From: an uncultured delta proteobacterium
GTDB lineage: Bacteria > Desulfobacterota > Desulfomonilia > UBA1062
Length of the DNA stretch: 64,000 bases
Assembly (NCBI GenBank): GCA_963785235.1
Contig: CAWAUM010000011.1
Span: 233,724 to 297,723, forward strand
Direction: 5' to 3'
The position numbers were made by a program, and so were the translations under genes. The notes below the pieces were generated by a model. It saw nothing but the letters and a program-made list of their open reading frames with translations, searched no databases and had not been told where the DNA came from. Positions within the stretch are counted from its first letter, which is position 1. The number at the start of each line of letters is the position of its first letter. Below are positions 1,661 to 58,164 of the stretch, in pieces.

Positions 1661-1668
1661 AATCTACC

Positions 1669-16898: not shown

Positions 16899-16906
16899 GG
16901 AGACGC

Positions 16907-31249: not shown

Positions 31250-31267
31250 AAATTAAGGGGTATTTCC

Positions 31268-34284: not shown

Positions 34285-34293
34285 TCTTCTCTC

Positions 34294-35887
34294 CTATGCG
34301 GTTTTCCTGTTTATGTAAGCCTGCTGGGCAATTGAGAGGATATTGCTCACGAGCCAGTATATGACCAGACCGGAGGGGAAGCTCAGGAACATGAAGGTAA
34401 AGACAACCGGCATGAAAAGCATGATCTTCTGCTGCATGGGATCACCCGTGGTAGGCGTCATTTTCTGCATGATAAACTGGCTCGCCCCCATGAGGATGGG
34501 AGTGATGTAGTAGGGATCGCTGGCTGAAAGATCCGGGAGCCAGGTGCCGAACATATGGAACGGGGTGTGTCTGAGCTCAATGGCCTGGTAGAACACCTTG
34601 TAGAGGGCAAAGAGAATGGGGATCTGCAGGAGCATGGGCAGGCAACCACCCATGGGGTTGATCTTGTGCTCCTTGTAGAGCCGCATGAGCTCCTGGTTCA
34701 TCTTCTGTTTGTCGTCCTTGTACTGCTGCTGGACCTCCTTCATGAGCGGCTGGATCTTCTGGAGCTCCTTCATGGAGGTGAAGCTCTTGAGGGTCAGAGG
34801 ATAGAGAAGGAACTTGATGATGATGGTCAGGATGATGATAGTCCACCCGTAGCTGCCCACGTATTTGTAAATCCAGTTCATGGACATGAGCAGCGGTTTG
34901 GCGATGATGTCGAAGAATCCGAAATCCAGGGCCTTGTTCAGCTTGTATCCCACAGCCTCCAGGGGTTTCAGCTCTTTGGGGCCTAAGAAGATGATATTGT
35001 CCTTGATCAGTGATGAACCGGCTGCAATAGTGGCTGGGGCAAAGGTGTAGTTGAGCTCCACAGTCTTGTCGCTGGTACGTTTTATGATGAGAGTGGTACT
35101 CGAAGGTGTCTTGGGAATGATGGTCTGGAGAAAGTACTTATCCTCAAACCCGAACCACTGGATCTCTCCGGTGAAATCCCTATAACTCCCGATATTCTTA
35201 ACCTTGTCGATCTTGAATTCTTCAAGGTGCTTGCCGTTCAGCAGAACAGGGCCTTCAAAGGCGTACCCGCTGCTCTTTTCATCAATCTTATAGGTATGGT
35301 TAAACACGATCCCGCCGGATACGGACATGGGTGAGGCGGTATGATTTTCAATAATAGCCTGGTATCCTATCTGATAGGTTTTGGGGTCTATGGTGAATAC
35401 TTTTTTCAGGGTGATGGCGGGCGATGCCTGGCTTCGGAATTCAATGACCTGTGGTATGTCGGCAAGTGTCACGGGACCCTGCTGGGATGATTCATAAACA
35501 AGGCCGACATCTGTGAACCCACCGGAAAGAACAAGGTTAGGCATTGGGGCTTTGATGATCTCAACCGGCTTTGCGTCCTTGTCCATGGAGGTAAGGTATT
35601 TCTTCAATTTTAAAGAGGTGATCTGGGCACCTTTCGTGCTGAAGGTGGCAGTATACAAGGGGGTATCTATGATGACATCGTTACCAGCAATACTGAGAGT
35701 TTGCGGGGCTGTGGTCGGGGCGACATCGATGGGTTGTACCTCCTGAGTCGGCTGGCTTGGCGCTGCAACAATGGGCTGCCGGCTTCGGCTCAGGTGCGGT
35801 TTTTATCTTTGTCTGGTCAAAAAGCAAGCCCCAGCCGAACAGAATGGCCATTGATAAAATGATGGCAAGCAGAGTCCTTTTTTCCAT
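34294..35887 (-). CDS. yidC: Membrane protein insertase YidC (apparent frameshift near 35660-35700)
   Basis: The conserved C-terminal 5-TM core is YPLTLKSFTSMKELQKIQPLMKEVQQQYK...GGCLPMLLQIPILFALY. The N-terminal TM/signal segment is in the separate ORF 35681-35887. Confidence 0.85.
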
Positions 35888-41654: not shown

Positions 41655-41756
41655 CATAGGTCCGTTCAAAACCTGCATCTTGCAGCTTTGAAGGTCCGAC
41701 AGAATAAGCATAGAGAAAAGGCTGCAAGATGCAGGTTTTGAACGGATAAGGTTTTT
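41655..41756. repeat. Palindromic repeat element copy 3 (same conserved termini, enlarged loop of about 37 nt), between convergent PHP gene and secretin gene
   Basis: The sequence is CCGTTcaaaacctgcatcttgcagc...gctgcaagatgcaggttttgAACGGataaggttttt. Confidence 0.75.
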
Positions 41757-41822: not shown

Positions 41823-43437
41823 CTACTGGGCCAGGATAATCGGTTCAAGCAGGATAACCAGCTCTGCGGTCTCAACGCTTTTTATCTGCTGGCTGAAGAG
41901 GTATCCAATACCGGGGATACTGCCCAGTATGGGTATACTCGTATTTTCCTGTTTCAGATTCTTGCTGATAAGCCCACCTAAGGCAATAATGTTTCCGCTT
42001 TTAACACGGATCTGGGTGGTGGCCTCTTCAAGCTGCACTGTGGGCAGCGTATAGACATTACCGCTGATGTCGCGTTCTTCAAGCTTCACTATCCGGCTCT
42101 TGATGGGGGTGATGCTCAGGTTTATCGAACCGGTATCCAGGTCGATATTGGGCACGACACCCAGCATGATGCCATCGAAGATAGAACCCACGGTCACCTC
42201 TGGTGTAGTGATTGTCGGGCCACCTTCTGTGGAAGTGGTTGTGAGCTTGATCTCCTGGATATATGAGGTGTTCGTGCCCACACTGATCAGCGCCGGCTGT
42301 CCGTTGGTCACCCTTATCCGGGGATTCGAGAGGACCTTTATGTCTCCGAATTCCTGCAGGGCGTTCATGGCTGCATTAAAGCCGTGAACGTCCGATTGTG
42401 CCTGGATCACCAGGGCAGGGGTGAGGTTAGTCGTTGAGAGCGCAAGGTTCTGCTGGATCGGATTGAAGACGATATCATTGATACTGAGGTGGGTGCTGGT
42501 CCAATCGATGCCGTACTGGCTTTTATCCTTCAGCGCGACCTCAATGATCTTTGCCGTGATGAGGATCTGTGAATTATAATAGGCCTTGATGGTCTTGATG
42601 TAGGCATCGATACGATCTATGGCGTCTCTCCTGTCATTTACCTCAAGGAAACCCAAGGCCCTGTTGAGGGAATACGACCCATCGCGGGTCAGGGTTGACT
42701 TCACATGATCCTCGATCTGTGTGCAGATGTCGCTGGTTGCTACAGGGATGGTGTCCTTGATGGAAAATTCACCGCTCAGGCCGTTATCACTTGATCCGCC
42801 ACTTGATCCGCCACCTGAGCCGCCACTTGAGGAGCCCGAAGAAGAACTGCTTGTAGAGCTGCTGATAACATCTCCTCCCACAGACATGGTGGTCTGTTTC
42901 TGGGAAGACAGGAAATTAAGGTGATAGGTTCTTGAGTCAGTACCCTTTACAGACAGTGCGCGTCCGTCCACCTTATAGAAAATGTGCAGTGCAGATGCTA
43001 CGTTCTCCAGGGCCTCTTCCAGTGGCGTCCTGTTAAATGCAATGGATACGGGCGGTAGAATAATGGGACCTTTGGCTGTTTGTTTATCTTTGGCCGCATC
43101 AGCTGTTTCTTCGGATAGATCGGTGCCGGTGCCCGCCTTAAGGCGTGAGTCAACCACCAGGTCCAGTCCCGCCCTTTCCGCAACGGCTGCAAATACATCG
43201 GTGAAAGCGGCATTGCTTGCGTTAAGGGTTATGGTCTTGCCTTTCAATGGATTCAGCTTGGCCACCTTTGCTTTGGGCAAAAGACTCTAAAGGTTTTGCC
43301 GCCTCAAGAGGTGTTGCAGCTTCCTTTTCTTTTTCAATGGAGAAATCCTCTTTCTTCATCAATTTGTCTGTGGTGCATCCGGAAAGGAAGACGCAACAGA
43401 TAACCGTGAGTAGTGAATACCTAATAAACTTTAACAT
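41823..43437 (-). CDS. Secretin (GspD/PilQ family) lipoprotein of a second T2SS/T4P-like system; apparent frameshift near 43250
   Basis: The C-terminal secretin domain is GQPALISVG...TSIPILGSIPGIGYLFSQ...AELVILLEPIIL. A Gly/Ser linker follows. The N-terminal lipoprotein signal (VFLSGC) is in the separate ORF 43222-43437. Confidence 0.75.
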
Positions 43438-43870
43438 GAAGGGTCTCCCTGGTACCGTTTTTGTTAGTAGTGATCACCTGGTCCGGTCCAATGGATGATA
43501 TTTGAAAGCTTTGTGTCTTGTCGCCAAGGCGCATTTTCTTTCCATTGATGATACAATAGCTTTGAGAACCTGCCTCAACAATCATACTTACCCTGACCGG
43601 TTCTGCTTCGGCCTTAACAGGAGGGTTTCCATATAAGGCATCCAAAGGCATGGTCCACTCGTGGCGAAAGACATCCCGGATGTCTTTGGCTGCAAGATCG
43701 GAATCGTCTTTAAGGGTGAAGATGCTCAGTTTATCAACATAGGTGAGGAACTCAGGTTGCTCGAGAGTAATGTTTTTGTTTTCGCGAAAAACATATGGAA
43801 CTGCGATGCACAATATAAGCGCAATGAGGGGCAGCATAAAGATCAGGATGAGGTTTTTGTCCAACTTCAT
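43421..43870 (-). CDS. PilP/GspC-like secretin-interacting protein (single TM + C-terminal beta domain)
   Basis: 149 aa with an N-terminal TM helix. The C-terminal IINGKKMRLGDKTQSFQISSIGPDQVI resembles the PilP/GspC homology region. It lies immediately upstream of the secretin. Confidence 0.45.
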   Translation of the reverse strand: MKLDKNLILIFMLPLIALILCIAVPYVFRENKNITLEQPEFLTYVDKLSIFTLKDDSDLAAKDIRDVFRHEWTMPLDALYGNPPVKAEAEPVRVSMIVEAGSQSYCIINGKKMRLGDKTQSFQISSIGPDQVITTNKNGTRETLHVKVY

Positions 43871-44281
43871 TCAGTTCCCGCCCCCAAGCTTGAAGCCTTT
43901 CATGCTGACCGTGATACCTGATGAAGTGCTTGTAACAATTGCCTTTTCAAGAAAGAACATGTCTTGTGCATAGGTCGAGGCAACCTCGGAAAACAGTTTT
44001 TTTACATCGTGGTCCGTCAGGGTGATTTCATAGTCCACGTTGATACCCCGTTCATGGGAAAGGGTGATCAGTTTGGCGCTGTATGCCTTGATGGACTCGA
44101 TCTTTTTTACATATTGTTTACGCTGCTCACTGGTCGCCAGGATCGCTCCCAGCTTGGCCTGGTTGAAGGTTATCTCCCTTGCTGCATGTACGTAATAGGC
44201 AAAGCCGGATATAACCAGCACGGCGCTGATGATGCCCATTATCAGGGCGAGGCGATAATACCTCATGGTTTTATCTCGCAA
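43871..44281 (-). CDS. GspM/PilO-like bitopic inner-membrane assembly protein
   Basis: 136 aa with a single TM helix after a short cytoplasmic N-terminus and a periplasmic alpha/beta domain. Its position between the GspL-like and GspC-like genes supports the call. Confidence 0.4.
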   Translation of the reverse strand: MRDKTMRYYRLALIMGIISAVLVISGFAYYVHAAREITFNQAKLGAILATSEQRKQYVKKIESIKAYSAKLITLSHERGINVDYEITLTDHDVKKLFSEVASTYAQDMFFLEKAIVTSTSSGITVSMKGFKLGGGN

Positions 44282-45699
44282 TTCAGGCTGAATTCAGCAA
44301 GCTGTTCCTTGTGGTTGTAAGCGGCCTTTGAGACGGGAAAGACCTCCTGCATGGTCATGATGAAAGATGAGAAGATCTCTTTGGATTTCGGGTAGGGAGA
44401 GTTGATGATGCCTTCTATTGCTATCCCGAATGAATTTGCATGAGATGTGCGATGAGCTTCTGCAGCGACAGGCATGGCCCTGCCCTTGGGAATGTCTTCC
44501 TGCAGGGAGGACCTGTTGACCTCGATCCTTGTAATGAAGACATTGGCCGGTACTCCCTGGGTTATGGTTTGTACAATTGATTGCAACTTGGGCTCAGCCT
44601 GGAAATCTTTATAGGTATCGACGATGGTGTTGATATTCGTCAGGTCAAGATTTTTGCTCAGGGATGTATAATCGTCTTCAAGCTCTTTGAGCTGCTTGGA
44701 GCTCTTATAAATTGCCGAATTGGTCCTCTTCTCCAAGGCCTCGGCCTTTGTGGTGTTGCTCCACCCCAATGCAAAAAACACAAAGGCCATCAGGATCATT
44801 ACCAATGATATGGCGCAAGAGATTTTTGCATATCCCACAATCCTTCTGGTCCGGTGCAGTTTTTCAGGGGTGAAGTCATAGCAGGGTTTCATGGCGGTTC
44901 CGAAGAGCACGATTGCAGCGGCGTCCGGATCTCCGGTTTCACTCAGGCTGAAAGGGACTGTATGGATGTTATGCTTTTCGAGATCGGATATATTGATCTC
45001 TCCTTGTCCTATATAGTAGATCTTCTGGACCTTTTCCTGGTTGGAGCTCTGCAGCATGGAGGTCATTTCCCGAATGCCGGAAACCGTATCGGCCTGGGCA
45101 TCGAAGGACTCGGCATAGTTAACGGTTATGAGGTAATAGATGATCCCGGATTTTGCGCCGATGATCCGGATGAAACGGGTGTCTTCATAGACGATGATCA
45201 CCATGTTTTTGTCAATGGAACCCACTGCCGAGGCGATGGATGACTCGATGGGGCAGAACATGTCCACAAGGGCCTCATCCTCGTCAATGAGATCGGTCCT
45301 GGTCAGTTCATTTGAAGGGATGGCCAGGTAGGAATACCTGCCCTTGAGGTTGTCTATATCCTGAATCTTGGCAAAGGCGACATGGTAAGTGTCCTTGAAG
45401 AGACCGAGTTTATCAATGGTAGATCGGATATGGGCTGTTGTGGCCTCCTTGCTGATACGGGAAAACTCACCCACATCCGAGTAGATGCCTCTGGATGAGA
45501 AGCATATGGACATGCCGGGCGCCTTGCGCGAGATGTCTGTCAATGAAGTGGAATCGACCTTCTTCATGTCTTTAAGGACGATCTTCTGTCCGGCGCCGGA
45601 ATAGGATGCAATGCAATGCTCCTCTTCGCCCAGGATAACGGCAATGCCCTTTTTCGGCCCCATTTTCATCGAGATAAATTTAGTCAATATGTCATTCAT
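44263..45699 (-). CDS. GspL-like / PilM-PilN fusion-like assembly protein (cytoplasmic actin-like domain, TM, periplasmic domain)
   Basis: 478 aa with one central TM helix (AISLVMILMAFVFFALGW), a cytoplasmic domain of about 290 aa before it and a periplasmic domain of about 160 aa after it. The architecture matches GspL. Confidence 0.45.
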   Translation of the reverse strand: MNDILTKFISMKMGPKKGIAVILGEEEHCIASYSGAGQKIVLKDMKKVDSTSLTDISRKAPGMSICFSSRGIYSDVGEFSRISKEATTAHIRSTIDKLGLFKDTYHVAFAKIQDIDNLKGRYSYLAIPSNELTRTDLIDEDEALVDMFCPIESSIASAVGSIDKNMVIIVYEDTRFIRIIGAKSGIIYYLITVNYAESFDAQADTVSGIREMTSMLQSSNQEKVQKIYYIGQGEINISDLEKHNIHTVPFSLSETGDPDAAAIVLFGTAMKPCYDFTPEKLHRTRRIVGYAKISCAISLVMILMAFVFFALGWSNTTKAEALEKRTNSAIYKSSKQLKELEDDYTSLSKNLDLTNINTIVDTYKDFQAEPKLQSIVQTITQGVPANVFITRIEVNRSSLQEDIPKGRAMPVAAEAHRTSHANSFGIAIEGIINSPYPKSKEIFSSFIMTMQEVFPVSKAAYNHKEQLAEFSLNCEIKP

Positions 45700-45773
45700 A
45701 TTTGTGAGTGTAGAGGATAAACCTCTCCACTTACTATGTTCTCGGAATTACGATTTGGTTTCTTTAGGATATT

Positions 45774-46412
45774 TTAAGGGAGTAATCCATGGAGATACGT
45801 GAGGCTCACAGTCTCGAGGATATCATCATAATTTGAGTTTATTAATGCAGAAGGAGAGGCGAATTGGTTATTATCACTGTTCGTGATACGCCCATCTCCG
45901 GTGTCGTCATTGGGAGTGTCTGCCCGCAGGTTTTCTCCCCCGGAAAGAACGACAAAGGCCACCTTCATGTTTCCATTGTCACAGAAGAGATCCGGAGCTG
46001 TTGTTCCATTGATAAGCTGACCGATTGTTGTTTTAAGCGTGGCGGGCGTAGTTGAGGTCAGATGTGATTCAACGGAATAAAAGAGGGTGGTCTGATAAGG
46101 GTCCTTGCCATTGATGCCGAGCGTTACCCAGGGCAGATAGCCATTTAGTCTGTTAGTAGTTTCAGCCCCATTGATGTTAGCGCTGGCAAACGGCAACCTT
46201 CCTGTGGCCAGGGCATACCCGATGATGGCGGTCCTGACTTCTTTGACAAACATCCGGTCATCCTTCAACTTGTTCTGCTTGATCAGCATGGGGAGGAGTT
46301 GTGCGCCAAGTCCCACAAGGATGCCGACTATCACGAGCACAAAGGCCATCTCGATGAGGGTAAACCCCTTTCGTGAAAAAGGCTTGCTCAGGCAGCAGCC
46401 TCTCCTTGTCAT
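45774..46412 (-). CDS. Prepilin-type N-terminal cleavage/methylation domain protein (pseudopilin)
   Basis: The class-III signal is SRKG|FTLIEMAFVLVIVGILVGLG, with E at +5. The likely start is MTRRG at 46412. The track ORF starts further upstream. Confidence 0.7.
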   Translation of the reverse strand: MTRRGCCLSKPFSRKGFTLIEMAFVLVIVGILVGLGAQLLPMLIKQNKLKDDRMFVKEVRTAIIGYALATGRLPFASANINGAETTNRLNGYLPWVTLGINGKDPYQTTLFYSVESHLTSTTPATLKTTIGQLINGTTAPDLFCDNGNMKVAFVVLSGGENLRADTPNDDTGDGRITNSDNNQFASPSALINSNYDDILETVSLTYLHGLLP

Positions 46413-46428
46413 AAGGTCATTGTTCACC

Positions 46429-47643
46429 CTAGCCACCCCCAAGCTTGGACATGAGGTCGTAAACCGGACCGATAAGGGAAATGACGATGAAGACGAAGAT
46501 GCCGCCCGTTATGACTATGGCAATGGGCTCAATCATCTTGCCCAAGATGTCTACAAAACGCGATGTCTTCAATTCGTAGGTATCTGCAAGATATTTCAGC
46601 CTCTGATCCAGGGTACCGGTCTTCTCGCCCACGCTGACCATCTTCAACGTGATGGCATCAAAGAATTTCGTTACAGTGAAGGCCGTCAGCAACGAATTGC
46701 CCATGTTGGTTTCATTACGTATACGTATGATGACCGAGCGGATGAGGTCGTTGTGAAAGACCTTTTCAAGGATATCAAGCGCTTTTGTAAGTGTCACGCC
46801 GGACTGAAGCATGAGGGACATATTCGAGAATACCAGGGTAAGGGTTGAGCATTTCAGCAGATCGCCCACCACGGGAAGACTGAAGGCAACACGGCTCAGC
46901 ATCAATCGTGTTCTAGGAATTTTTCCCAGAATGACAAACCCTATGGTAATCAATCCGAGTGCAATGGGGTATAGCAACCAGTTATCTTTGGAGAATTGGA
47001 CGAAATTGACAAGGCTCAACGTGATATTGGGGAGCTGGACATTGATCTCCTTGAAGGTTGAAACAAGGCGGGGCAGCACGAAAAAGAGCCAGAAGATGAT
47101 GACGCACAGCATGGCAGCCACCACGAAGCCCGGATAGATCAGCGCCCTCTTCACCTGGGAAACAATACTGTCCACCTTTTTTAAATAATTCGCGGTATTG
47201 TCCAGGGCTGTTTGAATGGTACCGGTCTCTTCTCCGATATGGCAGAAAAATATGAGCATCTCGGGAAACACCTCGGGCCGGCGTGAAAATGCCCCTGATA
47301 AAGACTCTCCCTGGGCAATGCCCCCGATGACCTCATCGATTGCATCTCGCAGGCGTTTTACCCTGATGGTTTCCTTGATGCTTTCCATGGATTCCAGTAG
47401 GGGCAGGCCGCTGCCGAGCATGGAGGCAAGGGATTCACAGAATTCCGCTATCTCGATCTTCTTAACTGCCGGCTGGGTAAGGGTCTTGATGGTTTCAATT
47501 ATCTGATACCTCTGTTCGCTGTAACGGATAAGCGTCATTTCCTGAGAGGAAAGGTTCTCCATCAGATCCCGGATGCCCTCGAAATCGCCCTTGGAGGCAA
47601 AGATTGTTCCGTCTTTCTTCAGGGCATTGTACGAAAGGATCAT
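46429..47643 (-). CDS. gspF: T2SS/T4P inner-membrane platform protein (GspF/PilC family)
   Basis: 404 aa with a duplicated T2SSF domain and three TM segments. Confidence 0.85.
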   Translation of the reverse strand: MILSYNALKKDGTIFASKGDFEGIRDLMENLSSQEMTLIRYSEQRYQIIETIKTLTQPAVKKIEIAEFCESLASMLGSGLPLLESMESIKETIRVKRLRDAIDEVIGGIAQGESLSGAFSRRPEVFPEMLIFFCHIGEETGTIQTALDNTANYLKKVDSIVSQVKRALIYPGFVVAAMLCVIIFWLFFVLPRLVSTFKEINVQLPNITLSLVNFVQFSKDNWLLYPIALGLITIGFVILGKIPRTRLMLSRVAFSLPVVGDLLKCSTLTLVFSNMSLMLQSGVTLTKALDILEKVFHNDLIRSVIIRIRNETNMGNSLLTAFTVTKFFDAITLKMVSVGEKTGTLDQRLKYLADTYELKTSRFVDILGKMIEPIAIVITGGIFVFIVISLIGPVYDLMSKLGGG

Positions 47644-49277
47644 TACCGCAAAACCCTCCAGATCTCTGCGAAGCTTGTCGTACCGTTAAGTATCTTGCGG
47701 ATGCCGTCACCCCGGAGCGTTACCATGCCTTCTTCCACAGCCTTGTCTTTGATCTCGAAGGGGTGTGACCCCACAGAGATGAGGCGCTCGATCTCTTTGG
47801 ATATAACCAGGATTTCCGCCACCATGATCCGGCCCAGGTAGCCGGTCTTTATGCACCTGGGGCATCCTACCGGGGCATACAGGGTTGTCCCTTTCTGGAT
47901 GCCGAATACACGGTGCTCTTCGTCGCCTGAATCATATGGCTGCTTGCAGCTCGGACAGAGTGCCCGGACGAGCCGCTGCGCTATGACGCAGATGAGTGAT
48001 GATGATATCATATAGTCCCTCATGCCAAGGTCTTTGAGCCTGGGTACGGCTCCGGAGGCATCGTTGGCATGCACCGTGGAAAGGACAAGGTGCCCTGTCT
48101 GCGCAGCGCGGAGCGCCATGGTCGCCGTATCGCCGTCCCGTATCTCACCGATAAGGATGACATCAGGGTCCTGCCGTAAAAAGGCCCTGACCGCGCTTGA
48201 GAAGATATACCCGGACTTCTCGTTAACCTGGGTCTGGCGGATCAGCGGGAACTGGTACTCAATGGGGTCTTCAACGGTCACGATATTTTTTTCAATGGAG
48301 CTGATCTCCCGCAAGGCCGCATATAAGGTTGTAGTTTTTCCTGACCCTGTGGGGCCGGAGACTAAGACCATGCCGTAGGGCTTGTGCAGAAGATCCCTGA
48401 GCTGGGTAATATCATCAGGATCCAGGCCAAGGCTCCGGATGTTATACAACTCCTCCGAGGAAGCCAGGATGCGCATGACCATGTTTTCCCCATTGGTAAC
48501 CTTTAAGGTAGAGACACGGATGTCATAGTGCTCATTTAAAAAATCAAAGGAGAGCCTTCCATCCTGGGGTTTGCGCTGTTCCGAGATGTCCATCTCGGCC
48601 TTTACCTTGATGCTGGAGATAACCCTGGAGTGCACCTCGATGGGAAAGGAGTAAAACGGGTAGAGTATGCCGTCGATGCGGTAGTGGATCTGTGTTGTCT
48701 TGTTCGTGGGGGTTACGTGGATGTCCGTTGCACGGGAGTTGATGGCGGACATGATCAGCAGCCTCACCAGTTTTTCTGTATCCACGTCGTGCGGATTATA
48801 CTTGGAATGTTCGAGCTGCTGCTCGATCTCTTCTTCTATGGGGTGTTCCAGGAGGTAATAGTCTTTTTCAATGTGCTTCTGTATCTGCGATGGCGATGCA
48901 GCCACAAACCGGATGCGTTTTTTCGAGATGCGTGAGGCAAGGTCTGACAGTTTCGTATTATCCGGTTCGCTCGTGGCTATGGTCAAGGTAGTGTCCTCGA
49001 CACTTATGGGAAGCAGGGAGTTCTCGCGTGCAAATTGCACGGGTAAAGCAGAGAGCGCTTCTTTCTGTGGTGAGAAATGACGCAGCTCTACAAACTCGAT
49101 GCTGAACTGTTTTGCAATGGACTGGGCAAGTTCCGTCTGGGTGACAAGGCCAAGACGGATCAGGATATCGCCGACCCGTTCCTTGGTGGCACGCTGTTCT
49201 ATAAGGGCAAGGCCGATTTCCTTATCGCTGATGATCCCTTCATCTTTGAGAAGATCACCAATGCGTTTTTTCTCCAT
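47643..49277 (-). CDS. gspE: T2SS/T4P assembly ATPase (GspE/MshE family) with N-terminal tandem MshEN-type c-di-GMP-binding motifs
   Basis: Walker A is GPTGSGKTT. Asp box, Walker B and His box are present. The tetracysteine is CPSC...CPRC. The N-terminus has RIGDLLKDEGIISDKEIGLALIEQ and RVGDILIRLGLVTQTELAQSIAKQ, each matching RLGxxLxxxGxIxxxxLxxALxxQ. Confidence 0.9.
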   Translation of the reverse strand: MEKKRIGDLLKDEGIISDKEIGLALIEQRATKERVGDILIRLGLVTQTELAQSIAKQFSIEFVELRHFSPQKEALSALPVQFARENSLLPISVEDTTLTIATSEPDNTKLSDLASRISKKRIRFVAASPSQIQKHIEKDYYLLEHPIEEEIEQQLEHSKYNPHDVDTEKLVRLLIMSAINSRATDIHVTPTNKTTQIHYRIDGILYPFYSFPIEVHSRVISSIKVKAEMDISEQRKPQDGRLSFDFLNEHYDIRVSTLKVTNGENMVMRILASSEELYNIRSLGLDPDDITQLRDLLHKPYGMVLVSGPTGSGKTTTLYAALREISSIEKNIVTVEDPIEYQFPLIRQTQVNEKSGYIFSSAVRAFLRQDPDVILIGEIRDGDTATMALRAAQTGHLVLSTVHANDASGAVPRLKDLGMRDYMISSSLICVIAQRLVRALCPSCKQPYDSGDEEHRVFGIQKGTTLYAPVGCPRCIKTGYLGRIMVAEILVISKEIERLISVGSHPFEIKDKAVEEGMVTLRGDGIRKILNGTTSFAEIWRVLR

Positions 49278-49466
49278 AAGACCCGTTCCCGCTCCTTAAG
49301 CAGTGCAAATTGAGAAATCACTCAAAGATATGTCCCTGCAAGAATCTCCTGTTGGAGAGTAGCCTTTCGGGTTTGTCTTCCACCTTCCTATCACGAGTGG
49401 GTGCATGATGTGTCATGCCCCAAACAACGCACGTGTGGGCCGGAAGACACCATCCTCGTGATACGG

Positions 49467-50060
49467 CTACATTCTCCAGTAGACAGTCTTAACCGTTGTT
49501 GCCGTATAAACAGTGTTGGCCCTCATGGTCCCTGTGTTGTAAACCGCGTCATCATATTTTCTGTCCATTTCCTGGGCAACCTCATAGGGGATCTGGGTGT
49601 ACACGATACAGTTCGCGTTCAGCGGTGTTGCAGACCCTGGGGGAGTAGCCAAATACTGGATGTAGGCCTGGCCTCCAAAGGGGTTTGTAGGGTAATCGTT
49701 AGCCGCTCCGGTATAGCCCCCGTTGATGATCTGTGCCAAGACGAGGTCCTGGAAGAGAACAGAGCGCTCGGTATTCGCATTGATCTGGCCGTTTCCTGCA
49801 GTCGCAGCAGGATCTGTATGGCCCTGTGTCGGGATATTAGCTACAGGTGCATCACCCGGATAATAGTTATACCTGTCATAATAGGTATAGAAGGCCGCGG
49901 TGAGTGAATCCTTCTGGTTGACTAACTTCTTGACCTTTGCATTCTGAATGAGGGCCTCGCCCTTGAGTACGCCTGTAATGAGCAAGCCGATGATCACCAA
50001 CACCAGTGCAAGTTCAACAAGGGTAAAGCCGCCTTTTTGTCGATTTCTAAACCGTTCCAT
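49467..50060 (-). CDS. Major (pseudo)pilin, GspG-like type IV pilin
   Basis: The prepilin leader is MERFRNRQKG|FTLVELALVLVIIGLL. The GspG-like region is NQKDSLTAAFYTYYDRYNYYPGD. Confidence 0.75.
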   Translation of the reverse strand: MERFRNRQKGGFTLVELALVLVIIGLLITGVLKGEALIQNAKVKKLVNQKDSLTAAFYTYYDRYNYYPGDAPVANIPTQGHTDPAATAGNGQINANTERSVLFQDLVLAQIINGGYTGAANDYPTNPFGGQAYIQYLATPPGSATPLNANCIVYTQIPYEVAQEMDRKYDDAVYNTGTMRANTVYTATTVKTVYWRM

Positions 50061-50180
50061 GCATACACCTCCTGATAGAGTAGCGCCTAGCTGTAAGCTC
50101 TAGTAAGCACCCAATCGGTATAATCCACATTCTTCTTTAGTAATTGCTCGATATGGCTTGAATTATGGAAAGGGAAGAGC

Positions 50181-52331
50181 TTATTCTTTATGCGTAATGA
50201 TTCGTCTCCCAAGTGTCAGGGGGGATATGCCCGGTATAGTGGAGATGTCCTTGTTATATACAGCTCCTGTTGAAGATATGAATTTCATGACACCATTGTC
50301 CAGATCAATGGAAGGACCAAAAGCGCTGCCCATAAACATGGCCTCTGACTTTGTTTGCCTTCCAGTGAGGGAATCATACTCTTGAAACATGGATATGCCG
50401 GTGTCAATACCTCCGCAGGGAGAATCTTCTTTCCAGGTGCTTAAGAATAACCTGTTATCCATGATTGTCATGCCTGAGGGTGAGCCTCCTTCAAGGGAGA
50501 CAGACCAAACGATATTCTCTTTGGTATAGCATTCAAGGCGTTTATTACTTGCCACGATGAGGTGAAGCTCCTTTCGCCAATGGAACGGACGTATCTCCAT
50601 AATGGGATTATTGGCGGTGGTGTTTATGATGCCCAAGAGTTCGAGCCTGTTGTTAAAAAGATAGACAAGTCCGTCGGATGTCCCTGCAAAAACCCCAGCT
50701 GTGCACGGATCATAGCGCACGACATTAATGGTATGATTAACTTCGAATTGAGCCGTCCCTATGCCGTTTCCAAGATTGTACGCATATATCGTGGAGCCGT
50801 TACTGATATAGGCCATGGATTCGGATGCGTCGATAAAAGACCCTTTATGCTGCCAGATTATCTGAGGTCCCTGGCCTATACACGAAATGATGCCCAGTCT
50901 GTTCGGGCCTGTTATGACCCGTTCGCCTCTCAGTCGCACCTCGCCCCCTATACCTGTCATGAGCCACGTCAGGCTGCCTTCGGGCATGGTGACATTGAGG
51001 AGCTGATCGCGGGATGTAGTGCAGTACAGGTCTGTCTGTGTGGCTGCAAGGTCATGGGCAAGGCCATTCAGGGAATAACCCGGGCAGGATACCAGGCTTA
51101 AAGGACTGACGACACTCGGTCTGTAAAACCGGCATTTGTCGGTTTTGAGCCATGGCGGATCGAGCCGTGCACGGAGGTTTTTCAGTATCATGTCCTGGTC
51201 GTTACGAACCACTATAGGCTGGGTAACCAGCATCTGTTCAGGAACGAGTATCTCCCGTGCCGGCATATACTGACCCCCGCCCTTTATAGCAACACTTCTC
51301 AGATACGCCGTATCAGGGCCGATAATGTGGACATTGATGCCCAGAGACTTCGCATAGGATGAGACATCATCAAGGCAGTGAGAGCCTTCCCCTTCAAAGG
51401 CAGCATCTTTGGCGTTTCCATCATGATCAAAGTCCTTCAGCCAGGAGGGGAGATGGCCGTCGTTTATGGGAACACCTGCAGTAACCAGAATGATATGTTT
51501 GCCGGATACACACTGCGAAGGGAACAGGGTTGTTGCATTATAAAGTGCCTCCGATAAAGGGGCTGAGCCCGATGCCGGATGAACGCCGTCAAGGCCCTGA
51601 AGGATCTGCTGCCATTCAATGGTAAAAGTTTGGATCAGGCCTTGTGACGTGCTCATAAGGGACACTTCACACAGATCCAGTGATTCAAAGAGCGACTTTG
51701 CGTAGGAGAAGGACTTTGTCCACACTGACATTGCACCTGTCAGGCTGCCGAGTGCCGGGGCCCTTTGATATGAGTTGCCCCAGCTTCCCTTGAAATAGGT
51801 GCCCTCAGCGTTCGTGTAGGTGTCTTCAAACTCACAGATATCACTGATGTGGGTTATGCCGCCTGTGGCCCATTTTGAGTAGAGCGCATCGTCTAAGAAA
51901 TCTTGGCCGGATGATGTAATCGTGCTTAATGAATCATCGATGATAATTATGATATGTGGTCTCTGGGCAATCCGGGTGGTGCCTTGTGGGATATCCGCAC
52001 TCTGTTCCCTTAGTGCCACACACCAGGAATATGACTGCATGGCGCTGGTTGCATGTTCGGTGAGCCTGGTGGAAAAACATATATGGTCCCACCCTTCAGG
52101 CGCCACAAGCAGTTTATGGGTTGCGGATGGCATAGTCCCGTTTTGGGGAGCAAAGAGCTGATCTTTAATAATACGATAGAAGGCGTTGCTCGATTTCATA
52201 TGGTACAAGGTTATGGAAGCGGACGCCATGGTAAGCCCCAGGATCACGGTAAGGAGTAGGAGTACAAAGGCAAGGATAAAACCTTGCTCATTGGATGGGG
52301 GATGATAAAGAGAGTTCCTTCTCTGTTCCAT
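50181..52331 (-). CDS. Large modular pilin-like protein with vWA (MIDAS DxSxS) domain and C-terminal beta-rich domain (PilY1-like / tip adhesin candidate)
   Basis: 716 aa. The pilin-like N-terminus is NEQG|FILAFVLLLLTVILG. HIIIIIDDSLSTITSSG is a vWA MIDAS motif, and a conserved Thr motif (HIILVTAGVP) is downstream. Its start overlaps the upstream minor pilin gene. Confidence 0.55.
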   Translation of the reverse strand: MEQRRNSLYHPPSNEQGFILAFVLLLLTVILGLTMASASITLYHMKSSNAFYRIIKDQLFAPQNGTMPSATHKLLVAPEGWDHICFSTRLTEHATSAMQSYSWCVALREQSADIPQGTTRIAQRPHIIIIIDDSLSTITSSGQDFLDDALYSKWATGGITHISDICEFEDTYTNAEGTYFKGSWGNSYQRAPALGSLTGAMSVWTKSFSYAKSLFESLDLCEVSLMSTSQGLIQTFTIEWQQILQGLDGVHPASGSAPLSEALYNATTLFPSQCVSGKHIILVTAGVPINDGHLPSWLKDFDHDGNAKDAAFEGEGSHCLDDVSSYAKSLGINVHIIGPDTAYLRSVAIKGGGQYMPAREILVPEQMLVTQPIVVRNDQDMILKNLRARLDPPWLKTDKCRFYRPSVVSPLSLVSCPGYSLNGLAHDLAATQTDLYCTTSRDQLLNVTMPEGSLTWLMTGIGGEVRLRGERVITGPNRLGIISCIGQGPQIIWQHKGSFIDASESMAYISNGSTIYAYNLGNGIGTAQFEVNHTINVVRYDPCTAGVFAGTSDGLVYLFNNRLELLGIINTTANNPIMEIRPFHWRKELHLIVASNKRLECYTKENIVWSVSLEGGSPSGMTIMDNRLFLSTWKEDSPCGGIDTGISMFQEYDSLTGRQTKSEAMFMGSAFGPSIDLDNGVMKFISSTGAVYNKDISTIPGISPLTLGRRIITHKE

Positions 52332-52980
52332 GGTATCTTGACCTCATGCGAATTGTCAGATCATTGCCTGAAATCGTTGGATGAAAGAGGACTACTGCCT
52401 CTGCAAGCAGTTGGTTGTTCCGGTAGAGGCCGTCTCCCTTCAGTTCATAGTGGATAGCCGGGACCGCCCTGTTGCCTTGTACAGGCATTATGGCGCATGT
52501 CAGAGGGAGGGTTTTTTTATCCAGGCCCCGTGAATAGTTGTGGCCTACAACACAGGGGCCGTTCTCGGTTATTATTCCAAGGTCGGCCCAGAAGTCTGCG
52601 CGGCCGTCATTGTCGATATCTACGGTATCGAGTATTGCAACCCTTTCAGCTGAGGAATTGATGAGTGCATAGTAAGGTGCCGGATTGGTCAAGGATATGC
52701 TGATACCGGGATTTTCAGATGTGACAGGCACCCCTGCAATAAAAAGCTGGCTGCCTTCAATCGCAATCTTAAGGTCCTGCGGGAGCAATAATGCACACTG
52801 AACGAGATCTGCATTCAGCTGGATAGAGGCCTGGCGGAGCGACTGCATGCAATACCATGCCTCTCTCATTTCTTTATGCGTAACAGCCGAAACCTGGTAG
52901 AATTGATAGAGAGCGAGAAAAAGTATTGATGAGCATGCAAGCGCTATAAGCAACTCCACCATGCCCACACCTCTTTCCAT
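52288..52980 (-). CDS. Minor pseudopilin (prepilin-type N-terminal domain, GspJ/PilW-like)
   Basis: 230 aa. The N-terminus MERGVGMVELLIALACSSILFLAL has G at -1 and E at +5. It is the first gene of the operon. Confidence 0.5.
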   Translation of the reverse strand: MERGVGMVELLIALACSSILFLALYQFYQVSAVTHKEMREAWYCMQSLRQASIQLNADLVQCALLLPQDLKIAIEGSQLFIAGVPVTSENPGISISLTNPAPYYALINSSAERVAILDTVDIDNDGRADFWADLGIITENGPCVVGHNYSRGLDKKTLPLTCAIMPVQGNRAVPAIHYELKGDGLYRNNQLLAEAVVLFHPTISGNDLTIRMRSRYHGTEKELSLSSPIQ

Positions 52981-53200
52981 TGTATGCCCCTTCCACTATA
53001 AAATATACTTATATGAAAGGAGGGATAATTCTTGGGAATAGAGATTAAACAAGAGAGAGCAGCAAGCTCAACAACAATACAATAAATACAGTTTAATATA
53101 ATACTATGAACCCGGTGCTTGTCAAGGGATGAAAGTACGCCTTAGGAAAATGACAATGGACAACCTTAAGAGATATTGATAATAATCGCACCAAAACAAG

Positions 53201-54855
53201 ATGGAGCGCATGCAGAGCAGGGGAAATATACTTATCGCGGTTATTGTGGTGATCGCCATTGCCATGACCCTGTTCCTGATTGTACCCCTTGGCGGTAAGG
53301 TGGGGCAGCTCAGGGAAGCCACCATCTCGTTCATCTTCCGGAAGCCCCCGCAGTTCACCTCCATGGAGGTCGATGTGGAGGGGGCCCGCAAGGTGGTAAG
53401 AGCGGGTGAGTCACTCAAGATCAAGGGTGGTGAGACCATCATCATCACCAAGGTCCATGCAAATACGTTCTTCGATTCATACCTGTCTGCTGATGTTGTA
53501 GGCTTCAGTAAACCAAACGACATGAATGAACCCATCGATACGGTGGAGATCCGCAATCAGCTCATAGCCGCCGGCATCAAATCGGTCCCCATTGATATTT
53601 TCTACCTCGACCGGAAGATCGCCAAGGTCCCCCTTGAGTTGGATCTGAATGAGCAGGACTTTATCAATCAGATAAGATCAGCCAAGAGTGATGAGGAAAA
53701 GATCTCCCTTTTGCGCTCCGCACATGCAACATTTCCGAAGAATATGTCCTTTCTGGATGAGCTTGATAAGCTCTTGAGTGCTAAAGAAGATTACCAGGCA
53801 CTGGTGGGGATCTATAAGGGGGTTGTGGAAGCCGATCCTGCGAATTTGGCGGCATACTTGAATCTCTCAGCATATTACATAAAGCTGAAGAACTACGATG
53901 AGGCCCTTGCCATGTGCCGGAAAATTATCGATGCGGGCAAGGCGGATGCGGTCATTTACCGCCGCATGGCCTATATCGCAGGCGAAAAGGGTGATCTTGA
54001 AAACCGTGTTGTATACCTGAAAAAGGCCCTTGAACTTGATAAACAAAACGAAGCCGTGGTTGTCGACCTGGCCAAGACCTATGAACAGGCAGGCATGAAA
54101 CAGCAGGCCCTTGATGTGTACCAGTCTGCTTCGGATATTGCCAAGGACAGGGATATCCTTATCCCTCTGATTCAAAATGCGATGAAAAAAGAAGATTATA
54201 AAAAGGCGCTCGATCTTCTGAAGCGCTACATTCAGCGCTACCCCAATGATAAGAATGCCACTTGCTCAGCTTGCCATGGTCATGGGCAAGCTGGGTGATA
54301 CAAAGGCGCAGGTTATATATTACCAGAAGGCGGCTGAACTTTCGCCTTCAGACAGCGTGATCTGGTATAACCTCGGTGTTGCCCGCGAAAAACTCGGCGA
54401 TAACAAGGGCGCCCTTGACGCCTATGACAAAGGTGCTCCAGATGAAGCAGGCAGATATGGATTCCATGCAGGCTGCGGCAGGCCTGTCTTTGAAACTGGG
54501 CCAGTACAAGGATGCATACGCGTATTATTCATCCCTGGCGAAAAAGACATCCAAGAAGGAACACCTTAAGGGACTTGTGAGCGCCGCTGTCGGATTGAAG
54601 GACCAGGACAAGGTTATCGAGGCCGGTACCTTGTTCCTCAAGAACAACAAGGACCATGACGTGGCCATGGCACTCGGGTATGCCTATGAGTCCAGGGCTT
54701 CTACACGTGAGCCCCGGGCAAAGCTGGATGACCTGAATAAGGCCTTGGAGGCATATCAGACAGCCCGTAAGGTCAATCCCGCATCCAGGATTGCAGGCGA
54801 GAAGATACCCGAGCTTAAGATTGAGATCCTTAAGCTCAGGAAGGCAAGGCAGTAA
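53201..54855 (+). CDS. TPR-repeat membrane-anchored protein (two apparent frameshifts near 54250-54300 and 54400-54480)
   Basis: It has an N-terminal TM helix followed by many TPR repeats spread across ORFs 53201-54298, 54246-54569 and 54376-54855. It is transcribed divergently from the pilus/secretion operon. Confidence 0.5.
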
Positions 54856-54896
54856 GGCCGCGTGTGTATATGAGCCCTGGGAGTCAAACACACGTC

Positions 54897-55553
54897 ATGG
54901 ATAGGACGTTTGCCATCGGAGACATCCATGGATGTCTCGATAAACTCGAAGACCTCATAAAGCTCATCGATCCTGGCCCGAAGGACAGCCTGATTTTTCT
55001 GGGTGATTACGTCGACCGGGGCGAATCCGCCTCAGAGGTGATCGATTACCTTATAGATCTTGCGCGCAGGGTGCCCTGTGTTTTTTTGCGGGGCAACCAT
55101 GAGGATATGTTTATCACCTTCTTGGAGTTCGGCTCGAATAAGACGATCTTTTTTGCCAATGGCGGCCTTAAGACCATCGAGTCCTACATCAAGCCCGAAC
55201 GTTTTACCGGCAATGACCAGGTGGCCCGAAGGTTGCCCGAGGCACATAGAGATTTTCTCTCAAATCTCAAGCTGTATCATGAGGATGACGGGTATATTTA
55301 TGTGCATGCAGGCATCAAGCCCGGCAATCCCATGATAGAGCAGGACAGGTATGACCTTCTCTGGATCAGGGACGAGTTCATCTTTTCGCCCACCGGCATG
55401 GAGAAGAAGGTGATCTTCGGGCATACACCCTTTGCCAGGCCCATGGTGAAACCGGATAAGATCGGGATAGATACCGGGGCGGTCTATGGCGGGGTTCTCA
55501 CGGCCATAGAGATCCCGGGCGAAACATTCATCCAGTCCTTCAGGCAGGCATAG
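54897..55553 (+). CDS. Ser/Thr protein phosphatase family metallophosphoesterase (PrpA/ApaH-like)
   Basis: The motifs are AIGDIHGCLDKL, LGDYVDRG and GNHE. The likely start is MDRTF. Confidence 0.7.
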   Translation: MDRTFAIGDIHGCLDKLEDLIKLIDPGPKDSLIFLGDYVDRGESASEVIDYLIDLARRVPCVFLRGNHEDMFITFLEFGSNKTIFFANGGLKTIESYIKPERFTGNDQVARRLPEAHRDFLSNLKLYHEDDGYIYVHAGIKPGNPMIEQDRYDLLWIRDEFIFSPTGMEKKVIFGHTPFARPMVKPDKIGIDTGAVYGGVLTAIEIPGETFIQSFRQA

Positions 55554-55577
55554 GCCTTATAAACGAGAATAACAGCC

Positions 55578-56237
55578 ATGTCCAAGGATTATTACCGGAT
55601 TCTGGAAATATCCAAGGATGCAACGTCTTTAGAGATCAAGAAGACCTACCGCAGGCTCGCCCTTCAATATCACCCTGATCGTAACCCCGATAGACCCGGC
55701 CTATAGAGCATTTCAAGGAGATCACCGAGGCATACGGGGTGCTTATCGACCCGGACAAGCGGCGGAAATATGACATGCAGCGTGAGATTCTCCTTCAACC
55801 GGGAGACGGTGTTCGAAGATATCTTATCCAAATCAGAGTTCCGGGACGTCTTCGATGATCTGCCCATACGAAAAGAATGGATTGACCGCATATTGAACGT
55901 GAGCAAGGTCTTTGCCTATGAGGCCTTTGTGGTGGGAGGCACGCCCAGTGCAATCCTGAGGCGGTCCATGGTGCGCCTGGCATCGCAGGGATTGAACAGG
56001 ATGTTCCATGCAGTCATGGACATGCACGAAAAGGTTGCCATCCCTTCAAGCATTGCCGTGCTCGGGGGATACATAACCCTGGAGTACAGGCCGGGCTTTG
56101 TGAAACACAAGATCCGTGTGAAAATACCCAGGAACACGCAGCAAGGCACAATGCTCAGGGTCCTGGGGATGGGCAGGTCAAGCCCGTCAAGAAAGGCAGG
56201 GGACCTCTATTTGCAGGTGGACATCGAATCGTTGTAA
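55578..56237 (+). CDS. J-domain protein (CbpA/DnaJ-like), two apparent frameshifts
   Basis: The J domain is [34 protein letters not shown], then [23 protein letters not shown] in another frame. The C-terminal DnaJ_C-like [22 protein letters not shown]...GDLYLQVDI is in ORF 55770-56237. Confidence 0.65.
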
Positions 56238-57151
56238 ATGACGATCTGGTTCTTGCCGTGCGTCTTGCCCCAGTACATGGCCGCATCCGCCATTTTGATG
56301 ACCTCGTGCGGATCGCTGGAATCCTTCGGCAGGCTGGAAAGGCCTATGGTGACGCTGACCTCAAGCGTTGATTCAACCGTGCTGCAGATACGCTCTGACA
56401 CCACCACGGCCTCTTCAATGGAGGTTTCGGGGAAGAGGATAATGAACTCCTCGCCGCCATAACGGGCAAGGATGTCGCAGTTTCTCGTGTTATGCTTGAA
56501 CACATGGGACAGGCGCACGAGCATTTCGTTGCCCTATTCATGCCCTTTGGCGTCGTTGTACTTCTTGAAATCGTCGATATCGATCATGGCCAGAGACATT
56601 GTCCTGTTGTACCGCAGGTGTCTCGAAACCTCGTTCTTGAGTACGCTCATGAGGTGCCGGAAATTGTACATGCCCGTGAGTTCGTCGGTGCGGGAGAGGT
56701 TCCGGTAGTAGTCAGCCAGTTCGGCCTCCTCTTTGAGCCTGACCTCTTCGAGGATCCTTTGGATGGTGAGGTGGAGGTGGTCGAGCAGAATCGGTTTGGT
56801 AATAAAATCCGAGGCGCCGAGCTTCATGCATTCCACTGCATCACGAATGGTGCCGTACCCGGTAATCATGACAGCCTGGATATCGGACCTGATCTTTTTG
56901 ATGGATTTCAATAACTCCGAACCTGTCATGCCCGGCAGGTGAAGATCCACAATGGCTATATGAAAGAGGTCTTTCTGGACGAATGCAATTGCCTGCTCCC
57001 CACTCATGGCGGTTGTTACATCAAAATCGTGCCCTAAAAGATACTCTTCAATAAGATCAAGGGTCTCCTGTTCATCATCCACAATCAGGACCCGAGTTGT
57101 TTTCTTCACAAGCGTGGCACCCATCGTATCAGCCGTTCTCCTTGTCCTCAC
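56207..57151 (-). CDS. Response regulator with GGDEF output (diguanylate cyclase, PleD-like); one apparent frameshift near 56525
   Basis: REC is VLIVDDEQE...AIVDLHLPGMTG. The GGDEF domain has RYGGEEF in ORF 56207-56524. Confidence 0.8.
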
Positions 57152-57348
57152 ATAATAATTCCATGAAGAGAACTTACAACTATCTTCATACTAACGGATA
57201 ATTGTCTACAATTCATGAGAGTTATTTTCGTTTACCGTCAGGGGGTGCTAGTATTAGCGAAATAATTTCAAGTAGGTGTCTCATGAGCTTTTATGTATAA
57301 CAGAATTCCCTCTAAAGATATTTTAAAAAAAGTCCGTTAAAGGGTGGG

Positions 57349-58156
57349 ATGCAACAGGCTTGTCTTATCAAGAAGATTGAACAGCATATTGAGAGTATTC
57401 CGACGCTTGAGTCCAGCCGGATGAGGCTCTTTAATGTGCTCCAGGAGGAAGAATCCTCCATAGAGGGTATTGAGCAGGTAATATCCAGTGATCCTGCCCT
57501 TGTAGCCAAAGTGATCAAGCTGGCGAATTCGTCGTTCTACCGTCATGCCGACAGGCATGTGGGAATCCAGCAGGCATTACGCACCATCGGTCTTGACATG
57601 GTGAAATGCATCGCATTGTCCATGGCCGTGATGGAGACCTTCGGCACCCAGACCCCTTCAATGAAGCAGCTCTGGAGGCATTCCTATGCAGTGGCTTATA
57701 TATCAGGACTGCTCGGGAATTCCAAAGCCGAGAAGGAGTGTCTCTTCACCGGGGGGCTTCTCCATGATATCGGCAGGATGATACTGATCTGCAGAGACAC
57801 CTGAACACTATCTTCCCCTTTGCGAATTCACCGGTAGCTGGCCCGATCTGGCATTAGAGCGCGATGTTTTCTCCATGGACCACACAATAATCGGCGAAAT
57901 GATCGCGAAGCGCTGGCATTTTCCGCCGGAAGTCATAGCGCTGATAAGGTATCATCATGAACCAATGAGCCGAGCAACCGCCCTTGTTTATCTGACGGAT
58001 CAGGTCGTCATGCAGCATGAGAGGGGTTTGATCACAGAAGATTTTGAGCAGGAGGTCGGAATCAGAAACCATCTTGGTGATGAGTATAAAGATCTTGTAA
58101 ATACTATTAGACAAAGGTATAGAACGAACACGGTTATATTTGAAAATTTGGGGTAA
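57349..58156 (+). CDS. HDOD domain protein (apparent frameshift near 57800-57880)
   Basis: The HDOD signature is ALVAKVIKLANSSFY...ALRTIGLDMVKCIALSMAV...GGLLHDIGRMIL. The continuation is in ORF 57875-58156. Confidence 0.7.
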
Positions 58157-58164
58157 GGGGCATT

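Follow-up and report, generated by a model that had tools for sequence, protein, structure and literature searches.

A diverged and rearranged, probably MSH-like type IV pilus operon with an unusual putative tip pilin in an uncultured Desulfomonilia bacterium

The operon described here lies on the minus strand of a 64,000-nucleotide stretch of DNA from an uncultured delta proteobacterium related to sulfate reducers (Desulfomonilia, UBA1062; GenBank assembly GCA_963785235.1, contig CAWAUM010000011.1, positions 233,724 to 297,723), which we call the window. It encodes a highly diverged, rearranged type IV pilus machine that resembles the mannose-sensitive haemagglutinin (MSHA) pilus, the model of the MSH class, and that has an unusual tip pilin. 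Its ten genes are named g1 to g10 in order (Table 1). An original prediction, made without database searches, had placed a ten-gene operon at 41823-52980 with the order pilins-E-F-pilin-L-M-C-D and had regarded it as an additional nanomachine, separate from a pilMNOPQ cluster in the same window. The coordinates are exact, the order is real and is conserved in about 25 genomes, as a check of gene order in the relatives established, the pilMNOP genes at the start of the window (522-3254) are confirmed, and the operon is a complete type IV filament machine separate from them. That the system is uncharacterised is also borne out, and the orthologous secretins carry an MshL annotation; the reading as a new nanomachine is unsupported.

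The main novelty of the operon is a pilin fused to large adhesin domains. The N-terminus of this protein, g2, is of the GspK/PilX type: a pilin helix follows a conserved glycine (G17/FILAF, the slash marking the end of the leader) and Glu5 is absent in every family member. PilX_N matches weakly in six family members. The AlphaFold2 model of g2 (pLDDT 87) contains, in order, the pilin helix, a three-stranded sheet, an alpha/beta domain that resembles von Willebrand factor A (vWA) domains, an 8-bladed propeller and a final strand. The vWA-like domain (residues about 125-355) contains an invariant loop of the form DxDxDGNxxD at residues 300-309 (window about 51405-51434, minus strand); it reads DFDHDGNxxD and is followed by an invariant GSHCLDDV and conserved cysteines. 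A loop of this DxDxDG type may be a calcium-binding site, which would recall the calcium site of PilY1. The beta-propeller (residues about 400-700) matches BamB/WD40, and the fold searches returned generic propellers alone. The description of g2 as a vWA-containing modular pilin thus holds for the pilin-like N-terminus; the vWA match is weak, and the propeller had gone unmentioned. The g2 family consists of about 30 clusters, all of Desulfomonilia type. Apical pilins that lack Glu5 and carry adhesin insertions have been described, and in a recent model of the tip complex such a pilin works jointly with the adhesin, the two being fused in some systems (PMC13533445).

The secretin, g10, is of the MshL type. 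Its best model is TIGR02519 (MshL), with 245 bits for the window copy and 243 bits for the copy on the closely related metagenome contig L001, against a cutoff of 250.2 bits and about 155 bits for the next-best family. Three of five g10 orthologues pass this cutoff (255-263 bits), and the lead of MshL over other secretin families is 90-110 bits. On g10 and its orthologues the GspD model scores 100-119 bits (cutoff 351), the PilQ model 97-108 bits (cutoff 284) and the type IVb PilN secretin model 118-155 bits (cutoff 288). In phmmer comparisons g10 scores 113 bits with the MshL proteins of Aeromonas and Legionella, 63 with BfpB, 45 with GspD and 41 with PilQ. Orthologous secretins are already named MshL in NCBI and JGI records. 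The lipobox is kept in every full-length g10 orthologue. Lipidation had been thought unusual for a secretin, a view that does not stand: Aeromonas MshL is also a lipoprotein, as read from the lipobox in its open reading frame (ORF), and so is BfpB. The tetratricopeptide repeat (TPR) protein encoded divergently from the operon is 27% identical to the TPR region of Aeromonas MshN (E 1.5e-5), a similarity of generic TPR type, and is a candidate MshN/TadD-like secretin assembly factor.

MSH systems are encoded in a single locus without a prepilin peptidase, and their MshN is related to TadD (Denise et al. 2019). The Vibrio MSHA locus reads mshI-J-K-L-M-N-E-G-F and continues with the pilin genes (mshIJKLMNEGF-BACDOPQ); the Aeromonas and Legionella loci that we fetched have the same gene order. 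The MSH model of TXSScan lists mshA, E, G, L and M as mandatory genes and requires three of the five. The operon studied here encodes the MshL-type secretin and is a single locus with a neighbouring TPR gene, and no prepilin peptidase was found among the scanned ORFs.

The components were searched with Pfam and NCBIfam profiles. The predicted ATPase with an MshEN domain and the predicted GspF platform protein were both recovered. The ATPase, g4, matches T2SSE with 420 bits, MshEN with 67 bits and NF053729, a model for the MshE-related cyclic di-GMP (c-di-GMP) motif, with 47.8 bits (cutoff 38). Its N-terminal domain aligns with the solved MshEN domain of Vibrio cholerae (5htl, E 1e-15), with both RxGxxL...Q repeats there, and is predicted to bind c-di-GMP. 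The platform protein, g5, contains two T2SSF repeats (E 1.5e-47).

The next three proteins to be considered, g7, g8 and g9, had been called a GspL-like fusion, a GspM-like protein and a PilP/GspC-like protein. Together with g2 they have no family match in Pfam or NCBIfam. The AlphaFold model of g7 (pLDDT 83) consists of an actin-like domain, a long helix with transmembrane and coiled-coil parts, and a small alpha-beta domain at the C-terminus. According to this model g7 is a cytoplasmic PilM-like actin fold joined to a periplasmic PilN-like domain, the architecture of MshI and GspL, so that the fusion is upheld by the predicted fold and not by profile searches. When 1.84 billion representative proteins were searched exhaustively with a profile, only 46 relatives of g7 were found, none of them with a Pfam domain. 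Sequence-profile searches with g7 and g8 against Pfam, NCBIfam and the PDB gave no match, and hhalign detected nothing between these proteins and the PilM, PilN, PilO and PilP of the window, or between g8 and the C-terminus of g7. A g7 profile widened with remote relatives still gave no PDB or Pfam link, and a concatenated g7+g8+g9 query returned g7 homologues alone.

The GspM-like call for g8 found no support in profile searches; the protein is assigned from its size, its topology with an N-terminal transmembrane segment, and its position. In Desulfurella-type loci the g8 profile matches the genes in the corresponding position (E 1e-15 to 6e-17). For g9 the proposed PilP/GspC-like identity is met in part. 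In hhalign its C-terminal domain matches Aeromonas MshK over 49 columns with a probability of 84% (E 8e-6), hmmsearch finds the Aeromonas MshK ORF (E 2.5e-5), and T2SSB is a weak match in three of five orthologues, weaker than the match to MshK. Profile or fold evidence backs eight of the ten gene calls; of the other two, g9 has the weak MshK match and g8 is called from position and topology.

Prepilin N_methyl motifs (Pfam) are present in g1, g3 and g6, in agreement with the minor pilin, major pilin and further pilin that had been predicted. In g3 the motif scores above the cutoff (26.7 bits; leader MERFRNRQKG/FTLVE). Across about 25 orthologues the g3 N-terminus, G/FTLVELALVLVIIGLLITG, is almost invariant, and g3 is therefore assigned as the major pilin; the first 40 mature residues are near-invariant. 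In g6 (25.7 bits) the sequence G/FTLIE follows a leader that is long and variable across about 25 orthologues, and the protein is homologous to the second pilin 5' of the ATPase in Desulfurella-type loci (E 3e-36). The motif of g1 falls just under the cutoff (E 8e-4); this protein has a leader of four residues (MERG/VGMVE), Glu5, a weak match to the N-terminus of GspJ, and the motif MxxG/xxLVEL kept in 25 orthologues. It always directly precedes g2, a GspJ/PilW-like position. The GspG and GspH models match g3 and g6 weakly. Extracellular electron transfer had been suggested as one role of the system. The e-pilin criteria given in 10.1101/668343 are at least 9.8% aromatic residues, no aromatic-free gap of more than 22 residues, and aromatics at positions 24 and 27. 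The proportion of F, Y and W in g3 is 11.3%, with an aromatic-free gap of 44 residues between positions 1 and 46. An electrically conductive pilus, and with it the electron-transfer role, is not supported: g3 fails the published spacing criteria.

About 25 species-representative metagenome-assembled genomes share the order g1-g10, most of them together with the divergent TPR gene, and conservation of the order in so many genomes is far beyond chance. These genomes are labelled Desulfomonilia, Thermodesulfobacteriota or 'Deltaproteobacteria' and include the phosphite oxidiser Phox-21; the identity of g7 across them goes down to 37%. Around the locus, which is near rnpA-yidC and dnaA, the housekeeping genes are conserved. 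The two ends of the operon also occur apart. The pair g1-g2 is intact without g3-g10 on contigs L002 and L003 (9358-12151), at the syntenic chromosomal site and with the TPR gene, and on L004 (9373-12145) in an unrelated context; the g2 proteins of L002-L004 are full length and 32-46% identical. On L017, g3-g10 are present without g1-g2. The lineage with g1-g2 alone is abundant, its protein being indexed in 136 blocks of the collection.

Outgroup operons were reached through the g7 profile and a secretin search. They occur on a Desulfurella-like contig, in Desulfurella amilsii (L040 2529-12704), in Thermodesulfobacterium sp. TA1 (L041 1467-12367), where the second pilin has 593 amino acids (aa), and on a vent contig. 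Their layout is pilin-pilin-E-G-AAA_22-I-J-K-L-TPR or I-J-K-L-TPR, and the AAA_22 protein, which shares 38% identity with Aeromonas MshM, is a genuine homologue of MshM. With the g7, g8 and g9 profiles, positional counterparts are recovered both in the Desulfurella-type loci and on the vent contig; in Thermodesulfobacterium only the g9 profile is clear, g8 is marginal and g7 is undetected. The operons of D. amilsii and TA1 share the E-G-...-I-J-K-L backbone with the Desulfomonilia operon (ATPase 46-51% identical, secretin 33-42%). The E, G, L and K (g9) proteins are clear positional homologues in both, and I and J are clear only in the Desulfurella-type loci. Unlike the Desulfomonilia operon, the D. 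amilsii and TA1 operons encode an AAA ATPase that resembles MshM, have their TPR gene downstream, lack g1 and g2, and carry the g6-like pilin before the ATPase.

Other known classes were tried and rejected. For a classical type II secretion system (T2SS; Gsp), GspD is far under its cutoff, there are no profile matches to GspL, GspM or the GspC that bears HR and PDZ domains, and the operon has four pilin-like genes against the five pseudopilins G-K. For a type IVa pilus (PilMNOPQ/PilBCT), which has separate PilM, PilN, PilO and PilP proteins, PilT and genes in several loci, PilQ is far under its cutoff, and the PilM_2, PilN, PilO and PilP profiles match the cluster at 522-3254 and not g7-g9; hhalign likewise detected nothing between that cluster and g7-g9. 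For Tad pili (TadA/TadBC with an RcpA secretin) and type IVb pili (BfpB/TcpC-type secretin), the TadA-type models score 56 bits with g4 and the type IVb PilN secretin model is far under its cutoff.

Several observations weigh against an MSH-like pilus with an adhesive tip pilin. A tblastn search with three MshM sequences found nothing in the window, and no MshM gene is present in any Desulfomonilia locus examined; MshM is mandatory in the TXSScan MSH model. At full length g4 scores 421, 392 and 388 bits with PilF/PilB, 352 with GspE and 344-362 with MshE; it is not closer to gammaproteobacterial MshE than to PilB and GspE, and the ATPase therefore favours none of these placements. No similarity was found by hhalign between g7 or g8 and Aeromonas MshI or MshJ. 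The major pilin carries a single cysteine, so it is without the disulfide loop usual in type IVa pilins. In the g2 family VWA_2 is a weak match, in 19 of 28 members, and the metal ion-dependent adhesion site (MIDAS) motif of g2 is partial (DDSxxM). Two of the genes are also interrupted in the window. One extra G near 43271 divides g10 into a leader ORF of 71 aa, a lipoprotein leader with the lipobox LSGC, and a main ORF, and the TPR gene is broken by 1-base insertions at 54261 and 54426.

With these points taken into account, we consider it fairly likely that the operon is an MSHA-like type IV pilus machine that is activated by c-di-GMP and is adhesive. The filament would consist of g3 as the major pilin with g6, g1 and g2 as minor pilins. 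It would be assembled by g4, as a PilB/MshE-type ATPase with a tandem c-di-GMP-binding motif, on the platform g5, with g7 as a PilM-PilN fusion and g10 as a self-lipidated MshL-type secretin. The MshJ/PilO-like g8 and the MshK/PilP-like g9 would be the remaining members of the inner-membrane alignment complex and connect it with the secretin, whose assembly the TPR protein may aid. A priming tip complex may be formed by g6-g1-g2; g2 would be placed at the apex of the filament because it lacks Glu5, and there it would display its vWA-like and propeller domains as an adhesin. Assembly would be switched on by c-di-GMP from the neighbouring GGDEF/HD signalling genes, and genes at other places in the genome would supply prepilin processing and any retraction. 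The system would most likely serve c-di-GMP-controlled attachment to surfaces or partner cells. The filament, adhesion and c-di-GMP roles are all predicted from sequence.

The operon could instead be an atypical T2SS, in which folded proteins leave by way of the lipoprotein secretin, driven by a short g3 pseudopilus, in the manner of the Pul (OxpG) system of Geobacter and Pelobacter. The layout recalls that system, pulF-E-M-N-O-P-Q(lipoprotein secretin)-pulG-oxpG, and the GspL architecture of g7, the weak GspG/GspH matches of g3 and g6, the lack of a disulfide pair in g3 and the lack of a retraction ATPase in the operon all fit it. The scores of the secretin (GspD 100-119 bits against MshL 243-263) and the N-terminal domain of the ATPase, of the c-di-GMP-binding MshEN type, argue for a pilus, however, and neither a GspC-type PDZ protein in the operon nor a linked candidate substrate gene was found. 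Four pilin-like genes, one of them with about 600 residues of adhesin-like domains, would also be odd for a periplasmic pseudopilus, and we regard a T2SS as unlikely. It is possible, if doubtful, that the operon comprises two modules, g3-g10 being the machine and g1-g2 a portable minor-pilin and adhesin cassette able to serve another pilus, for example the type IVa pilus of the pilMNOPQ cluster. The occurrence of g1-g2 without g3-g10 in L002-L004, the reverse arrangement in L017 and the absence of g1 and g2 from the outgroup operons all favour such a cassette. Against it, all ten genes form one uninterrupted run of unchanged order in about 25 genomes, and the machine would otherwise be left with g6 as its sole minor pilin.

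A joint reading brings the tip protein and its mobility together with the MSHA-like machine, and we put it forward as a tentative proposal, with rather more doubt than confidence. In this proposal g2 would represent a hitherto undescribed class of tip subunit in type IV filaments, a single chain acting both as the Glu5-less capping pilin (the role of GspK, PilX and MshP) and as the adhesin (the role of PilY1 and MshQ), with a vWA-like domain bearing the DxDxDG calcium loop and an 8-bladed propeller. It would move with the GspJ-like g1 as a cassette for different pilus machines. The machine encoded here would be an unrecognised deep MSH-like branch from anaerobic and thermophilic lineages, with PilM-PilN and PilO-like parts too far diverged to be recognised by sequence.

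The interrupted genes raise the question of a decaying pseudogene cluster in this genome, in which the secretin and TPR genes are truly frameshifted and the outer-membrane channel is lost. Contig L001 is 98.7% identical to the window over 21.6 kb, and the 1-base insertions do disrupt g10 and the TPR gene relative to this contig and to all orthologues: the secretin is intact as a single protein of 527-546 aa in L001 and about 25 orthologues, and the TPR protein is intact in L001 with 550 aa. However, 12 single-base indels separate the window from L001, and they also hit conserved signalling genes (55553-58680). Two of them are extra bases in L001 that garble the C-terminus of its g7, where the 478-aa g7 of the window agrees with the other homologues. 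Elsewhere in the window a PolX-like gene (HHH_8/thumb ORF and PHP ORF, 11350-13066) and a class A penicillin-binding protein gene (transglycosylase ORF and transpeptidase ORF, 23142-25547) appear split too. Because all relatives keep the secretin and TPR genes intact, the frameshifts are probably assembly errors. The many single-base indels across the window suggest an error-prone, probably long-read, assembly, and their spread over many genes is more in keeping with assembly error than with one operon decaying selectively; a pseudogene cluster is very unlikely. The lipoprotein secretin of the original prediction is thus confirmed as an MshL-type protein with a lipobox that is not one ORF in the window, and its divergent TPR protein as present with the gene split by two 1-base insertions.

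The co-oriented ORFs g1-g10 fill the region 52980..41823 and overlap or almost abut, except for spacers of 120 and 189 nucleotides that flank g3 (Table 1). A strong AGGAGG ribosome-binding site lies 5' of g3. No sigma-54 promoter was found near g1 or g3, the folding of the g3-g4 spacer is not unusually stable (z -1.7), and no Rfam family matches anywhere in the window.

Table 1. Features of the operon and its flanks (window coordinates)
Feature	Position	Strand	Basis
Sigma-70-like promoter, 5' of g1 in the divergent intergenic region	53098..53125	-	TTGACA-16-TATTAT, 11/12 matches, best of the region; consensus match alone
g1, minor pilin, 230 aa	52288..52980	-	N_methyl motif
g2, modular tip pilin, 716 aa	50181..52331	-	AlphaFold2 model, weak domain matches
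g3, major pilin, 197 aa	49467..50060	-	N_methyl above cutoff
g4, extension ATPase, 544 aa, MshEN N-terminal domain	47643..49277	-	T2SSE and MshEN
g5, inner-membrane platform protein (GspF/PilC/MshG family), 404 aa	46429..47643	-	T2SSF
g6, minor pilin	45774..46442	-	N_methyl
g7, PilM-like/PilN-like fusion, 478 aa	44263..45699	-	Predicted fold
g8, small bitopic protein, 131 aa, MshJ/PilO/GspM position	43871..44266	-	Position, size, N-terminal transmembrane segment
g9, bitopic protein, 149 aa, C-terminal beta domain, MshK-like, PilP/GspC position	43421..43870	-	Weak MshK match
g10, MshL-type lipoprotein secretin	41823..43437	-	Leader ORF 43437..43222 and main ORF 43280..41823
Weak terminator-like hairpin 3' of g10	41722..41734	-	Pattern match alone
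Membrane-anchored TPR protein, 550 aa if intact, divergent from the operon	53201..54855	+	TPR families

The block that adjoins the TPR gene (window about 54864-59286; L001 1-4410) encodes a metallophosphoesterase, a DnaJ-like protein, a GGDEF response regulator, an HDOD/HD protein and a GAF hybrid histidine kinase. It is syntenic in L002 and in part in L006-L008, and is a plausible source of c-di-GMP input to the MshEN ATPase. Further away, a multi-PAS histidine kinase gene is followed by a gene for a sigma-54-dependent response regulator, a PilS/PilR-like pair (14583-18196). The window also contains dnaA (6123-7469) and the yidC-mnmE genes (about 31253-35658), so the operon lies within a few tens of kb of these housekeeping genes.

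These results extend MSH-type pili beyond the Gammaproteobacteria to uncultured Desulfomonilia, the group to which Phox-21 belongs. The link to cultured Desulfurella and Thermodesulfobacterium offers possible experimental models for the MSH-like branch. Neither Pfam nor NCBIfam detects the alignment-complex proteins of this lineage, and automated typing would therefore probably under-call the system. The pilin-adhesin fusion is a natural test case for the model in which an apical minor pilin and a tip adhesin jointly license filament assembly. The understanding of how type IV filaments work is unchanged by the finding.

Of the known systems, the Pul (OxpG) T2SS of Geobacter and Pelobacter, which has a shown role in OmpB secretion (as reported in the paper cited for it), is like the operon in its described layout: E, F, then M-N-O-P-like genes, a lipoprotein secretin and few pseudopilins. 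It differs in having separate M and N genes and in the downstream position of its pseudopilins.

The statement that the gene order matches no MSHA layout was overstated. As in MSHA, the operon ends with a lipoprotein secretin of the MshL type, and by order and size the three genes before it fit MshI-J-K; there is an MshK-like protein (g9), an MshEN-type ATPase domain and a neighbouring TPR gene; the single locus is without a prepilin peptidase or a retraction ATPase; and the large putative tip protein is placed after a GspJ-like minor pilin. The homologous operons of Desulfurella and Thermodesulfobacterium, with their MshM-like and MshN-like genes, are further ties to MSHA. Unlike MSHA, the operon has a permuted order (pilins-E-G-pilin-I-J-K-L) with the TPR gene divergent, lacks MshM and MshF, and has four pilin-like genes instead of seven. 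Its I and J proteins are unrecognisable by sequence, and its ATPase does not score higher with MshE than with PilB. Where MSHA has a separate MshQ, the putative tip protein of the operon is a pilin that itself carries vWA-like and propeller domains. TadG/CpaL of Tad pili, GspK, and PilX with PilY1 of type IVa pili resemble g2 in that a Glu5-less apical pilin is found with a vWA-type or propeller adhesin. The sequence of g2 shows no similarity to TadG/CpaL, GspK, PilX or PilY1, and unlike all of them g2 unites a pilin, a vWA-like domain and an 8-bladed propeller in one chain.

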